This document shows, piece by piece, positions 33-7,563 of a DNA stretch of 8,067 nt (positions within the stretch are counted from its first letter, which is position 1; each line of letters starts with the position of its first letter). The notes beneath the pieces were generated by a model. That model saw only the letters and a program-made list of their open reading frames with translations. It made no database searches and had not been told where the DNA came from. Source of the stretch: a virus (Duplodnaviria > Heunggongvirae > Uroviricota > Caudoviricetes); the IMG/VR virus record IMGVR_UViG_2703718825_000004, one strand, 5' to 3'. A program made the position numbers and the translations under genes.

Positions 33-188
33 TTACTCCTCAGGTTCGTAAGCTGTGAAGACAGCGACCTCCGTCTGGCCGGTTCGGATTCGTACCTCGC
101 AGAGGTCTTTCCTCGTTACCAGTGCCGTCACTATGACGGTTAAACAGATGACGATCAGGGCGATTAACATCGCCTTTTGCTGCTTCAT
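33..188 (-). CDS. hokD: Hok/Gef-family type I membrane toxin (HokD/RelF-like), 51 aa
   Basis: Minus-strand translation MKQQKAMLIALIVICLTVIVTALVTRKDLCEVRIRTGQTEVAVFTAYEPEE matches, from memory, HokD/RelF and the Hok-family pattern (one TM helix, RKDLCEV...TGQTEVAVF...YE). AAGGAG Shine-Dalgarno lies about 9 nt upstream of the ATG at 188-186. Imperfect GC-rich hairpin in the 3' region (about 3-29). Sequence identity is recalled, not searched. Confidence 0.85.
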   Translation of the reverse strand: MKQQKAMLIALIVICLTVIVTALVTRKDLCEVRIRTGQTEVAVFTAYEPEE

Positions 189-245
189 AACCTGCTTCTC
201 CTTGCCTTTCGGCGCGTAAGAGGCTAACCTACGTTTGTGAAGCAT
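33..245 (-). CDS. Mok-like in-frame upstream reading frame overlapping hok (70 aa)
   Basis: Same frame as hok, starting at ATG 245-243 (MLHKRRLASYAPKGKEKQV then MKQQ...). This resembles the MokC/HokC arrangement in which mok is an N-terminally extended frame of hok. No convincing SD before this ATG; inference. Confidence 0.4.
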   Translation of the reverse strand: MLHKRRLASYAPKGKEKQVMKQQKAMLIALIVICLTVIVTALVTRKDLCEVRIRTGQTEVAVFTAYEPEE

Positions 246-431
246 AGATTGGGCCTCAGATTAATGTTAAGCGTCTTGCAGGACGCGTAATGTTAACTGG
301 GGCTTTTCTCTGTCTGCCTTACGGTGGCATGCCCGAGGCAGACAGCCTCAAGCACCCGCAGCAATTCTACTTAACTCTCGCTTTACAGCAAACCGTTTTG
401 CCCGATATGGGAATTCCCATACGGAATGAAT

Positions 432-4720: not shown

Positions 4721-5146
4721 TCAATGCACGACAACAGCATTACCAGGCTGACCACCACTGTTAGTCAGGGTGCCCCAGGCGATCGCCGCTGCGACAAAAT
4801 CATCCACATCTTTCACCAGCCGATCCCTCCGTTCGACGATCTCACGGTAATATTCAGAGCTGTGACTGCGCATACGGGCCACCAGCAGAGGCGGCATTGC
4901 CTTTTCGATCGCCGGTAACAGAGCCTGAATTTTTTCAACAGCATCAGGGGTGTCTTTATCCAGCCAACGGAAAATTTTCTGGGTATTACGAGCCAGGGCT
5001 TCCGGATGGCTGTCGTCGTACAGTTCCGGGAACGTCATCCCCAGCTCGAAATAAGTCCGGGCTATTTCAGCTGCAGGAACTTTCTCACCGTCCGGATAGG
5101 CCCAGGCATTGATCGCCATGCGGATGTGCTCATGTTTGATTTTCAT
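4721..5146 (-). CDS. ydaT: YdaT-family protein (CII-position regulator of Rac-type prophages), 141 aa
   Basis: Starts MKIKHEHI and ends VVVH, as Rac YdaT does from memory. ATG 5146-5144 overlaps the Cro-like stop (ATGA). Sits in the cII position between cro and O. Confidence 0.75.
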   Translation of the reverse strand: MKIKHEHIRMAINAWAYPDGEKVPAAEIARTYFELGMTFPELYDDSHPEALARNTQKIFRWLDKDTPDAVEKIQALLPAIEKAMPPLLVARMRSHSSEYYREIVERRDRLVKDVDDFVAAAIAWGTLTNSGGQPGNAVVVH

Positions 5147-5370
5147 GAATCCCCCTTTCCTTCGCCCTGAGTGGTATCCTTCTTTTTGTAAAGTTCTGGG
5201 TTCAAAGATAATTTCCCCTTGGAGTATGCAGCAGCTTCCGCAGCCCTCCCCTTCGGAACTATTTCACCAGGACGCTTACGCCACATGTAAATAGCTTCGC
5301 GGGTTATCCCATAAAAATCGGCAACCCTCTGAACAGAACCAAAAAACTGGACAAGTTCATCAACTCGCAT
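5143..5370 (-). CDS. Cro-like HTH regulator (DicC/YdaS family), 75 aa
   Basis: Divergent from the CI-like repressor. SD GGAGGT 4 nt upstream of ATG 5370. Pattern L..FGS...VA...GI...IY.W.....VP.GRA shared with DicC as recalled. Confidence 0.8.
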   Translation of the reverse strand: MRVDELVQFFGSVQRVADFYGITREAIYMWRKRPGEIVPKGRAAEAAAYSKGKLSLNPELYKKKDTTQGEGKGDS

Positions 5371-5464
5371 TTTACCTCCTAAATCTAAGTATTTTTAGAT
5401 TACAAGATAATTTTTTTTAGGTCAATGCAATCTAAAATAATTTATATTCAATTTGCAGGAGAAA
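5371..5464. promoter_or_regulatory. OR-like divergent promoter/operator region between the cro-like and cI-like genes
   Basis: 94-bp AT-rich intergenic region. Inverted repeat AATCTAAgtatttTTAGATT at 5382-5401, and a second inverted repeat TTTTAG-N11-CTAAAA at 5415-5437. -10-like TATATT at 5443-5448 for the cI-like gene; TTGACC-N17-TAATCT on the minus strand for the cro-like gene. Confidence 0.6.
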
Positions 5465-6112
5465 ATGATGGAAAGCCTTGGCATCAGGCTTAAGAGACTT
5501 AGAAAAGATAAGGGGCTGACCCAAGTAGAACTGGGTAAGCTTTCAGGCGTGACTGGGGTTACTATAGGGTACTGGGAGAAAGATCTAAACGAACCAGGTA
5601 GCAAAGCTCTAAGTAAGTTAGCCCAGGCATTAGGAACTACTGAGTCCTATCTCCTATATGGAGTATCGTCTCCTGAATTATCTTTTGTACAAAGTACCTC
5701 AGGCACCAAGATCCCCTACCTTTCGTGGGGTGAGGCGATTTCTTTCCTAATCTTAAAAGGAGAGAAAACAATGGGAAATGTCGATAGGATCACCACATTC
5801 TTTGATGTCGAGGAAGGTGATTTTGCCGTTTCAATGCCTGATGACACAATGCATAACCCATCAGGATCACCGAGTATCCCAGTTGGTGCTACTGTGATCC
5901 TAAGGCCAGGAGAAAGTTATAAAAATGGCAGCATCGTCGCTGTAATAGTTCCGGATCCGCTTAAAAATGAACCATCTATGACTATAAAGAAATTAGTTAT
6001 TGATGGGAAGCTTGTGTATTTAAGCCCTCTCAATCCACGCTATCAGTCATCCTTACTTACACCAGAGTGTAAAATTGTTGCCGTAGCAAAAGGTGTACAG
6101 TTCAACTTATAA
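5465..6112 (+). CDS. Lambda-CI-like prophage repressor (N-terminal HTH_XRE plus C-terminal LexA-like S24 peptidase domain)
   Basis: N-terminal LGIRLKRLRKDKGLTQVELGKLSGVTGVTIGYWEK is a classic XRE HTH. C-terminal region has the S24 Ser motif (AVSMPD) and Lys motif (TIKKLVIDGKLVYLSPLNPRY, close to lambda cI [20 protein letters not shown]). The ORF track starts at TTG 5453; ATG at 5465 or 5468 follows AGGAG at 5457-5461. Confidence 0.9.
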   Translation: MMESLGIRLKRLRKDKGLTQVELGKLSGVTGVTIGYWEKDLNEPGSKALSKLAQALGTTESYLLYGVSSPELSFVQSTSGTKIPYLSWGEAISFLILKGEKTMGNVDRITTFFDVEEGDFAVSMPDDTMHNPSGSPSIPVGATVILRPGESYKNGSIVAVIVPDPLKNEPSMTIKKLVIDGKLVYLSPLNPRYQSSLLTPECKIVAVAKGVQFNL

Positions 6113-6133
6113 CCCGCCACGTCCTTTACTTGA

Positions 6134-6159
6134 GGTCGGCAATGCCGACCTTTTTTTTT
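6134..6159 (+). terminator. Rho-independent terminator downstream of the cI-like gene
   Basis: Perfect 7-bp stem GGTCGGC / GCCGACC with 3-nt loop, followed by T9 (6151-6159), 22 nt after the stop codon. Confidence 0.75.
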
Positions 6160-6164
6160 AAATT

Positions 6165-6207
6165 AATCTAGATTTATCTTGACTGAAAAACTAAATACTT
6201 TTAGATT
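6165..6207 (+). promoter_or_regulatory. PL/PdicB-like promoter with operator-like palindromes
   Basis: TTGACT (6179-6184), 17-bp spacer, TAGATT (6202-6207). Perfect 10-bp palindrome AATCTAGATT at 6165-6174. CTAAATACTTTTAGATT at 6191-6207 is 15/17 identical to CTAAGTATTTTTAGATT at 5385-5401 in the OR-like region. Confidence 0.5.
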
Positions 6208-6387
6208 TATTACATACCACCCTACCTCGCCCCACAGAACGTCGGGCAATACCTCGAGTTACCCGGCAGTGGTCAGGGGTTAAGTAGCCAGCCCGAGGCG
6301 TATGAACATGACGGCGGGAACACTTTGTATAACAGCGCAGCAGGTTTTTAGTTCCGCGACCCGGCGTTAAGGGTAAATGAGGTCAAC

Positions 6388-6540
6388 ATGGATATGCTCA
6401 ATCTTGGCAACAATGAATCTCTGGTGTGCGGAGTATTCCCCAACCACGACGGCACGTTTACCGCGATGACGTATACCAGAAGTAAAACGTTTAAAACCGA
6501 AGCTGGCGCGCATCGCTGGTTAGCAAGAAACGCTAACTGA
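6388..6540 (+). CDS. Small protein, 50 aa (YdfA-like by position)
   Basis: ATG 6388 preceded by SD TGAGGT at 5-nt spacing. Translation MDMLNLGNNESLVCGVFPNHDGTFTAMTYTRSKTFKTEAGAHRWLARNAN. Below the ORF-track cutoff. The YdfA equivalence rests on gene order in the K-12 dicA-ydfABC-dicF-dicB operon and is not sequence-verified. Confidence 0.5.
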   Translation: MDMLNLGNNESLVCGVFPNHDGTFTAMTYTRSKTFKTEAGAHRWLARNAN

Positions 6541-6802
6541 TTAGCGCCAGTAAAAACAGGTTTCCACAGGTTAATTTACCCTGAAAAGTCAGGGCATAAC
6601 ACGAAAGCGCACGGCGAGATCCCTTTGCATATAAGTCTTGTCGTTAAATTTCTTCGACCGTGCGCTTCTGGTTGTGGCAATCCGCGAAATGGCGCGGCGG
6701 TAAGTATGGCGGGGTTATTCCTTCCCCCATTGAGGACACCGGGTTGTCAGGTTGACCATACGCTTAAGTGACAACCCCGCTGCAACGCCCTCTGTTATCA
6801 AT

Positions 6803-6855
6803 TTTCTGGTGACGTTTGGCGGTATCAGTTTTACTCCGTGACTGCTCTGCCGCCC
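6803..6855 (+). ncRNA. dicF: DicF small regulatory RNA (ftsZ-targeting sRNA of the Qin-type dicB operon)
   Basis: Sequence TTTCTGGTGACGTTTGGCGGTATCAGTTTTACTCCGTGACTGCTCTGCCGCCC matches the 53-nt DicF sequence as I recall it, followed by a T5 tail (6856-6860). It sits immediately upstream of dicB as in K-12. Confidence 0.85.
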
Positions 6856-7029
6856 TTTTTAAAGTGAATTTTGTGATGCGGTGAATGCGGCTGAGCGCAC
6901 GCGGAACAGTTAAAACCAAAAACAGTGTTATGGGTGGATTCTCTGTATCCGGCGTTAATTGTTAACTGGTTAACGTCACCTGGAGGCACCAGGCACTGCA
7001 TCACAAAATTCATTGTTGAGGACGCGATA

Positions 7030-7218
7030 ATGGAAACGTTATTACCAAACGTTAATACGTCTGAAGGTTGTTTTGAAATTGGTGTCACTATCAGTAACCC
7101 TGTATTTACTGAAGATGCCATTAACAAGAGAAAACACGAACGGGAGTTATTAAATAAAATATGCATTCTTTCAATGCTGGCCCGTTTACGTCCGATACAA
7201 AAAGGATGCTGGCAATGA
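7030..7218 (+). CDS. dicB: DicB cell-division inhibitor (MinC-activating), 62 aa
   Basis: Translation METLLPNVNTSEGCFEIGVTISNPVFTEDAINKRKHERELLNKICILSMLARLRPIQKGCWQ matches DicB as recalled. SD GAGGA 7 nt upstream of ATG 7030. The ORF-track frame 6925..7218 is an upstream extension crossing the DicF terminator. Confidence 0.9.
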   Translation: METLLPNVNTSEGCFEIGVTISNPVFTEDAINKRKHERELLNKICILSMLARLRPIQKGCWQ

Positions 7219-7406
7219 ATACAGCATTTGCACTTGTTCTGACAGTTTTTCTTGTTTCCGGAGAGCCAGTTGATATTGCAGTCAGTGTTCACAGGACAAT
7301 GCAGGAGTGTGTGACTGCAGCAACCGAACAGAAAATTCCCGGTAACTGTTACCCTGTCGATAAAGTTATTCACCAGGATAATAACGAAATCCCGGCAGGT
7401 CTTTAA
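7215..7406 (+). CDS. ydfD: YdfD (Qin-type prophage lysis-associated small membrane protein), 63 aa
   Basis: ATG 7215 overlaps the dicB stop (ATGA). Translation MNTAFALVLTVFLVSGEPVDIAVSVHRTMQEC... with an N-terminal TM helix; matches YdfD position and, from memory, sequence. The ORF-track frame starts earlier at 7161. Confidence 0.85.
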   Translation: MNTAFALVLTVFLVSGEPVDIAVSVHRTMQECVTAATEQKIPGNCYPVDKVIHQDNNEIPAGL

Positions 7407-7563
7407 AACAGTTCCGTAATAAACATCCGATTTCATTCTTATATGCCAGAAATGGCAGGGATTTGTTCACCCTTAAATCTGTAATGAGGTAAAACAAAAA
7501 ATTGTTTGCGAGGATAAACCCGGTATACCCCGCCCTGCCCTCGATTCCTGGGATGCTGAATAT

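Follow-up and report, generated by a model that had tools for sequence, protein, structure and literature searches.

DicF and DicB inhibit cell division and also alter the metabolism of the cell and its sensitivity to phages; in enterohaemorrhagic Escherichia coli (EHEC), DicF promotes the expression of virulence genes. An 8,067-bp stretch of viral DNA (IMG/VR record IMGVR_UViG_2703718825_000004; the whole stretch is called the window below) carries both within a ydfA-DicF-dicB-ydfD operon downstream of a repressor gene. This arrangement raises the question of which promoter and which repressor determine when the operon is transcribed. The analysis indicates that the segment 6155–6214 is very probably the early-left control region (an analogue of lambda PL/OL) of an E. 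coli O26:H11 lambdoid prophage, namely a repressor-controlled σ70 promoter for ydfA-DicF-dicB-ydfD.

The window has the gene order of a lambdoid immunity region: a leftward cro-like gene, three operator sites (OR1-3), a rightward repressor gene, a terminator, a promoter, and ydfA-DicF-dicB-ydfD (Table 1). The repressor gene and the ydfA operon are on one strand, with 275 bp between them. The terminator contains a 9-bp G+C-rich stem, a 3-nt loop and a run of 9 T, with a fold energy of −15.0 kcal/mol. Because this strong terminator (6132–6160) is predicted to end the repressor transcript, the operon needs a promoter of its own. Between the repressor stop codon and ydfA, TTGACT-N17-TAGATT is the best plus-strand promoter match in 6100–6400. 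Specifically, a −35 element (TTGACT, 6179–6184, plus strand) and a −10 element (TAGATT, 6202–6207, plus strand) are separated by a 17-nt spacer and score 9/12 in the consensus promoter scan. The predicted transcription start is at about A6214, 7 nt after TAGATT.

We searched the window for the operator motif AATCTAA-N6-TTAGATT (7+6+7 bp, 14 specified positions), allowing up to three mismatches. Exactly three sites were found in the 8,067 bp, with 0, 1 and 1 mismatch, compared with 0.34 expected from shuffled sequence. Two of them lie between cro and the repressor gene and the third (OL1) lies over the −10 element, all within the two regulatory regions that flank the repressor gene. The distribution of mismatches is gapped, with no further site until four mismatches, and four of the six sites with four mismatches also fall in these two regions (5404, 5434, 6155 and 6165). 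When the AT-rich 101-bp spacer 6113–6213 was resampled 200,000 times under a first-order Markov model, a site with at most one mismatch occurred at a frequency of 1.6e-4.

OL1 matches OR1 at 17 of 20 positions, and a repeat search also reports it as an inverted match to OR3. The −10 element TAGATT doubles as the right arm of OL1. The right arm of the weaker upstream site, OL2, reads CTAGATT, and its poor left arm overlaps the T-run of the terminator. On the other side of the repressor gene, the sites at 5382, 5404 and 5429 appear from their layout to be OR1, OR2 and OR3. A cro-directed promoter (TTGACC-N16-TGTAAT, minus strand, 5426–5399) and a weak repressor-directed promoter probably accompany them, neither of which was called by the promoter scan.

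Close relatives used for comparison are phages vB_EcoS-689R5 and vB_EcoM-606R7 (hereafter 689R5 and 606R7), which have the same immunity region at ~92% DNA identity. CTTGACT and the 25 bases AAAACTAAATACTTTTAGATTTATT (window 6186–6210) are invariant in both, so the −35 element, OL1 and the −10 element are all kept. Differences lie between the palindrome/OL2 and the −35 element, and also at 6185–6186. On the OR side, OR2 has one change (A5406G). The terminator is also kept, with one C-G pair at the top of the stem changed to U-G.

An earlier note on this DNA had placed the promoter TTGACT-N17-TAGATT downstream of the repressor (cI) terminator, embedded in an operator-like 10-bp palindrome at 6165–6174, with an OR-like 17-mer at 6191–6207 over the −10 element. 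Both promoter elements were confirmed at those coordinates. The 17-mer is real and is better described as the 20-mer 6188–6207, with one mismatch to the motif. The palindrome is indeed perfect over 10 bp, but it is not itself the conserved operator; OL2 has its right arm in the right half of this sequence. The palindrome stops 5 bp before the −35 element and does not enclose the promoter.

More distant homologs of the repressor were found in a scan of one genome per species. Proteins with 46–54% identity are encoded in Arsenophonus nasoniae, Candidatus Phlomobacter and two Xenorhabdus species. Their helix-turn-helix (HTH) segment is nearly unchanged (LTQV.LGK..GV(T/S)GVT(I/V)GYWEKDLNEP..KALSKLA), while their C-terminal domains diverge. 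The operator type co-occurs with this DNA-binding domain: it is present upstream of the repressor gene in all four homologs (X. hominickii has three sites at 24–25-bp spacing, and two were detected in each of the others) and downstream of the gene in three of the four (Arsenophonus and both Xenorhabdus), the Phlomobacter downstream copy looking degraded.

The downstream sites of the homologs come in pairs. X. hominickii has AAAATAAATTTTCTTATATT and AAACTAAGTTAACTTAGATT, 35 bp apart, with AAACTAAGTTAACTTAGATT inside TTGCAT-N17-TAGATT, and X. santafensis has the same pair ~790 bp past the stop codon. The Arsenophonus pair, AAACAAAATATATTTAGTTT and AAACTAAGTTATTTTATATT, is spaced by 33 bp, and AAACTAAGTTATTTTATATT lies inside TTGCAA-N17-TATATT. 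Two features are therefore traits of the repressor family: the −10 element falls within the right arm of OL1, and another operator lies upstream at a distance of about three helical turns. The counterpart of this second operator in the window would be 6155–6174. The control region belongs to a well-known kind. For its repressor family, found in Escherichia, Arsenophonus and Xenorhabdus, the comparison now yields a clean operator consensus and a two-site OL architecture.

The DNA downstream of the predicted start also bears on the position of the promoter. The leader 6214–6387, and above all 6245–6316, is more conserved than the flanking genes, and it hardly varies among Rac/Qin-type prophages of ~13 immunity types. 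In an alignment of 98 unique loci, column identity to the consensus steps from 0.35–0.6 to at least 0.8 at 6214–6221, which coincides with the start expected 7 nt after TAGATT. In over 3,000 E. coli genomes, and in several phages whose immunity regions differ, similarity to the query begins only at about window 6207–6234. Specifically, phages with DicA-like, RacR-like, HK022-like and other repressors have unrelated DNA up to a σ70-like promoter, followed by the common sequence from ATACCA(A/C)CC. In the K-12 Rac prophage, for example, TTGACA-N17-TATAGT lies between racR and ydaG and is followed after 6 nt by ATACCACCC, with the leader at L013:2958–3121 (minus strand).

A pattern scan of IMG/VR recovered 119 loci with 75 distinct upstream sequences and ~13 operator types. 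The −10 element of the best σ70-like promoter ends 41–47 nt before the leader anchor TCGAGTTA in 65 of the 75 upstream sequences; in the remaining 10, promoter placement is owed at least partly to the −10 filter. Across the ~13 operator types, type-specific inverted repeats overlap the promoter spacers.

The protein that would act on the operators combines two domains. The N-terminal domain of the repressor is closest to the N-terminal domain of P22 C2 (PDB match, E 3.6e-7), and its C-terminal S24-fold domain is closest to the C-terminal domain of lambda cI (PDB match, 1e-5). Judged from these domains, from its length of 214 aa and from its different operator sequence, the repressor is not DicA.

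At the level of sequence, the window thus has the defining features of a PL/OL region: a same-strand σ70 promoter downstream of the repressor gene; OR-type operators that overlap the promoter, OL1 with one mismatch and OL2 weaker with its position conserved; and a repressor with an HTH and an S24-fold domain (Pfam and PDB matches), encoded between OR and OL and divergently from cro. The promoter most likely initiates at ~A6214, and the transcript would run through the conserved leader into ydfA, DicF, dicB and ydfD, and onward to the exonuclease, xis and int genes. The repressor, probably as a dimer, would bind two operators that are inverted repeats of the form wAwCTAA-N6-TTAGAtw. On OL1, which covers the spacer and the −10 element, it would exclude RNA polymerase, and OL2, 33 bp (about three helical turns) upstream and just above the −35 element, could bind it cooperatively.

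Because this operator type is also present at three sites between cro and the repressor gene, one protein would shut both early operons via OL and OR1-3, as in lambda, P22 and Qin. The terminator would insulate the operon from the repressor transcript. From this arrangement we infer the start site, repressor binding, cooperativity and repression, and likewise any looping between OL and OR.

The earlier note had further proposed that this is the control point of the ydfA-dicF-dicB-ydfD transcript, which agrees with the gene order, with the promoter placement in ~13 immunity types and with the analogous dicBp of K-12 Qin. Its suggestion of a direct repression target is supported by the statistics of the operator over the −10 element and by the OL1/−10 overlap in the homologs. 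Of its label, OL/PdicB candidate, the OL type holds, and PdicB is apt for position and function only; the repressor and the operator are not those of DicA.

Several points weigh against this assignment. The 9/12 promoter match alone is at chance level (four such matches in 2 kb against 2.9 expected from shuffles), and the −10 element TAGATT matches the consensus at only 4 of 6 positions. OL2 is weak in the window, with four mismatches, and an alternative register, 6165–6184, scores equally. The sequence by itself would fit use of the sites by the repressor, by the Cro-like protein or by both. In addition, a Thr (DDTM; residues ~124–129, 'MPDDTM') aligns with the catalytic Ser149 of lambda cI (GNSM). 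The catalytic Lys (Lys192 equivalent) is kept in the same alignment (MTIKKL versus FTFKKL), and the Xenorhabdus homologs have Ser at the nucleophile position (NDSM). RecA-stimulated self-cleavage of the repressor is therefore uncertain, and given this Thr opposite the cI nucleophile we do not assert that the repressor is SOS inducible.

Two alternatives concern the second operator. It could lie in the register 6165–6184 (AATCTAGATTTATCTTGACT), 23 bp from OL1 and overlapping the −35 element, as OL2 does in lambda. This register has the same mismatch count as 6155–6174, and its distance of 23 bp from OL1 is close to the spacings of 22 and 25 bp between the OR sites of the window. In the 92%-identical relatives, however, both of its arms worsen (AATTTAG / CCCCTTGACT), whereas the right arm of 6155–6174 improves, and the second site of the distant homologs is 33–35 bp from OL1, not 23 bp. 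We therefore consider this register unlikely.

Equally unlikely is that the palindrome AATCTAGATT is a separate site, for example for the Cro-like protein or another regulator, and not part of the 20-bp repressor operator. Two operator arm cores placed back to back make up its perfect 10 bp, and the related prophage L051 retains ATCTAGAT. A C-to-T change in 689R5, 606R7 and a further locus, L140, argues otherwise: the sequence there reads AATTTAGATT, which breaks the palindrome and turns CTAGATT into the perfect OL2 right arm TTAGATT. Moreover, the distant homologs are without the palindrome but have a 20-bp site in the OL2 register, 33–35 bp from OL1.

Finally, the absence of a functional promoter, with TTGACT-N17-TAGATT a chance match in AT-rich DNA and ydfA-dicF-dicB expressed by read-through from the repressor (PRM-type) transcript, would suit the short same-strand distance between the genes and the near-chance number of promoter-like matches, but is highly improbable given the conserved G+C-rich hairpin and U-run in between, the −35 and −10 elements that are invariant in diverged relatives, the promoters at equal distance from a shared leader in ~13 unrelated immunity types, and the constitutive cell-division inhibitor that read-through would give in lysogens.

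Table 1. Features of the immunity region and the ydfA operon in the window (coordinates are those of the window).
Feature	Position	Strand	Evidence and remarks
cro-like gene, 75 aa, first of rightward operon	5143–5370	−	Open reading frame list; Pfam P22_Cro, E 1.2e-9; RefSeq Cro/CI family regulator
OR1, putative, perfect AATCTAA-GTATTT-TTAGATT (AATCTAAGTATTTTTAGATT), adjoins cro	5382–5401		0 mismatches; invariant in 689R5 and 606R7
OR2 candidate, weak, AAGATAATTTTTTTTAGGTC, 22 bp from OR1	5404–5423		4 mismatches; position fits Xenorhabdus three-site arrays
OR3, putative, AATCTAAAATAATTTATATT, adjoins repressor gene, 25 bp from OR2	5429–5448		1 mismatch; invariant in 689R5 and 606R7
Repressor gene, 214 aa	5468–6112	+	Pfam HTH_3, 1.9e-12, and Peptidase_S24, 5.3e-11; RefSeq 'LexA family protein'
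Predicted intrinsic terminator of repressor transcript	6132–6160	+	Terminator scan: hairpin 6132–6152, then T-run
OL2, putative, weaker, TTTTTAAATTAATCTAGATT, 33 bp upstream of OL1 (about −59 to −40)	6155–6174		Direct repeat with OL1; 4 mismatches
Perfect 10-bp palindrome, AATCTAGATT	6165–6174		Sequence; right half is the OL2 right arm
OL1, putative, AAACTAA-ATACTT-TTAGATT (AAACTAAATACTTTTAGATT), over spacer and whole −10 (about −26 to −7)	6188–6207		1 mismatch
Predicted 5' leader of early-left transcript	6214–6387	+	Near-invariant non-coding core 6245–6316
ydfA homolog (DUF1391, 50 aa), first operon gene	6388–6540	+	Open reading frame list, RefSeq, Pfam
DicF small RNA	6804–6855	+	Rfam RF00039, 76.7 bits, E 4.6e-16
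dicB (62 aa), cell-division inhibitor	7030–7218	+	Pfam DicB, 1.7e-37; RefSeq
ydfD homolog (DUF1482, 63 aa)	7215–7406	+	RefSeq, Pfam

Window 5140–6400 matches a prophage of E. coli O26:H11 strain 11368, as well as many other EHEC and enteropathogenic E. coli (EPEC) genomes, at 100% identity, and 474 of the 5,426 complete E. coli genomes contain at least 80% of this segment. The prophage of strain 11368 adjoins potC. Its annotation lists, on one side, replication P, a DnaT-like protein (at the O position), YdaT and a Cro/CI family regulator. On the other side, divergent from this regulator, it lists a LexA family protein, DUF1391 (ydfA), dicB, DUF1482 (ydfD), an exonuclease, an excisionase and an integrase.

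Two other RNA matches were seen in the window. At its opposite end, 183–357 (minus strand) matches the Rfam sok antitoxin RNA with 114.9 bits, beside a hokD-type toxin reading frame; this region is a prophage hok/sok type I toxin-antitoxin locus. From the DicF 3' end to the dicB start, 6853–7062 (plus strand) gives a sub-threshold Rfam STnc100 match of 35.7 bits (gathering score 47).

The shared leader extends beyond lambdoid phages of E. coli. Diverged copies follow PL in the Arsenophonus and Phlomobacter prophage loci (L141/L142), and another diverged copy follows the first σ70 (host) promoter of T7-like phages, with 401 phage records carrying this version. The T7-like carriers include an IMG/VR contig (99% identical to Klebsiella phage K5-4 over the stretch), Shigella phage A7, Salmonella phage SPLA4, and Klebsiella phages K5, KP32 and BIS33; leader copies also lie at L032:7960–8050 and in loci L150-L154. 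An nhmmer profile built from the lambdoid leaders, run with a conservative database size of 100 Mb, matches the T7-like leaders at the same place, with E values of 0.005 (A7), 0.055 (the contig) and 0.42 (SPLA4), and gives no match in the control loci. Consistent positions were found in two other comparisons: CGAGTTA starts at ~+42 in the window and ~+40 in phage A7 by our own count, and in a MAFFT alignment the −35 TTG falls in one column for all ten lambdoid and T7-like sequences.

A canonical boxA (CGCTCTTTAACA) follows the leader module in T7-like phages and Arsenophonus. In the predicted PL transcript of the window, no boxA or nut site was found beyond chance-level matches with three mismatches. 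The first ~27 nt of the predicted transcript (6214–6240, ATACCACCCTACCTCGCCCCACAGAAC) are C-rich and G-poor, a composition typical of Rho loading, yet have 0.8–1.0 identity. Among the leader carriers, Actinobacillus phage vB_Apl-pPE4 (L011, PP818812.1) has a Rac-like early region (DicA-like repressor, YdaT, Kil, exonuclease VIII). Its record gives an Actinobacillus host, and its copy of the leader is 76% identical; it may be worth checking whether the host is correctly assigned or where the phage comes from.

The leader does not resemble a folded or coding element. An Rfam cmscan of the whole window at E ≤1 returned sok, DicF and STnc100 only, with nothing in 6160–6400. The single-sequence fold of the leader is no better than shuffles (z = +0.95), and RNAalifold on nine diverse leaders gave only a 3-bp hairpin with zero covariation. 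Helices tried by hand (GYCGGG/CCCGGC, ACGUCGGG/CCCGGCGU and CCUCG/CGAGG) have no supporting compensatory changes. A small leader reading frame (ATG at ~6303/6309) is not kept across variants, which have indels and loss of the ATG, and by eye the leader core has stops in all six frames.

A put-type antiterminator was suggested by word similarity to HK022 putR (GAACG..., CCCGGC-GUGGUCA-GG). HK022 carries putL, a cis-acting antiterminator RNA, directly after PL, and a put covariance model (R1; 8 put sequences, 17 base pairs, filters off) was built for this reason. The model scores putL at 96 bits and putR at 58 bits, and finds no match at E ≤10 in the window leader or in eight homologous leaders. 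By this test the leader does not have the two-stem put fold with its conserved GAACGGCGCGAC...GUCGG and GGCGGGUUCAGGAUGAACGGCAAU motifs, and is not put-type. A full-text literature search with the leader core sequence returned nothing relevant, and HnrS (PMC13502914), which is located in late genes, is unrelated.

We suggest tentatively, as a possibility short of a probability, that the ~100-nt module (6214–6318; core GCAATACCTCGAGTTACC...TTAAGTAGCCAGCCCGAGGCGTATGAACATGACGGC) may act in cis as a so far undescribed early-leader signal that the transcription or termination machinery of the host reads at the sequence level. It could, for instance, be a processivity or anti-Rho element that is independent of N. 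Such an element would help PL transcripts past the DicF terminator to dicB and the recombination genes and, if functional, would be an early-transcription element common to lambdoid and T7-like phages.

The control region can be compared with four known systems. HK022 is, like the window, lambdoid and without N, and its PL-putL region shares a conserved non-coding element that starts at the +1 position of the early-left transcript or close to it; it differs in the put match and the consensus fold that the window leader does not have. In P22, the C2 N-terminal domain is the closest solved structure to the DNA-binding domain of the repressor, and the Cro-like protein matches the family named after P22 Cro. 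The C-terminal domain of the window repressor is closer to lambda cI, and the content of the downstream operon differs. The P22 half-site, which we take to be ATTTAAG, is one position off the ATCTAAG/A of the window.

The arrangement is also that of lambda PL/OL. In both, cro is followed by OR1-3, the divergent repressor gene, a terminator and a leftward early promoter on the strand of the repressor gene; operators overlap this promoter, and the repressor combines an HTH with an S24-fold C-terminal domain related to lambda cI. The window differs in its operators, which are 7+6+7 bp and of other sequence compared with 17 bp in lambda, and in its OL, which has two recognisable sites 33 bp apart compared with three sites ~24 bp apart in lambda. 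The Thr in place of the cI catalytic Ser is a further difference, as is the gene content: the first genes are ydfA, dicF and dicB. With ydfA as the first reading frame, and no N-like reading frame or nutL boxA downstream of the promoter, this is not an N-type operon.

A parallel in position and function is the Qin cryptic prophage of E. coli K-12, in which DicA and DicC reportedly control the dicBF operon, as Bejar and colleagues are said to have described in 1988. In Qin and in the window, a promoter between the repressor gene and ydfA drives, or would drive, ydfA-dicF-dicB-ydfD and has an operator in its spacer. The K-12 promoter dicBp reads TTGACC-N17-TAATCT, with a DicA-type operator at the analogous position. 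Deletion of dicA de-represses dicBp 22-fold (Ragunathan et al. 2023, PMC10448788). Both repressors have a P22-C2-like N-terminal domain, and the window agrees with K-12 at 95% identity over 6574–7498, which runs from a point upstream of dicF through ydfD. The ydfB and ydfC genes of K-12 Qin are absent from the window (6532–6573 versus L002:2653–3153), homology resuming 230 nt upstream of dicF with 95% identity.

The gate itself differs. The window repressor is a 214-aa protein with an S24-fold domain, compared with the 135 aa of DicA, and its operator AATCTAA-N6-TTAGATT differs from the DicA operator Oc, TTGTTAGTCATAACTAACAA (Yun et al. 2012, PMC3441716). Of the ~175-nt window leader, Qin keeps only the last ~40 nt before ydfA, and the rest of its intergenic DNA is unaligned. 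The identity of the promoter and the repressor that would gate DicF and DicB in the O26 EHEC prophage tells when both can be made. Because the gate here is probably not DicA but a repressor of the cI/C2 type acting on operators of its own, findings made in K-12 Qin, for example on the Rem antirepressor or on induction by temperature and urea, need not transfer to the O26 prophage.

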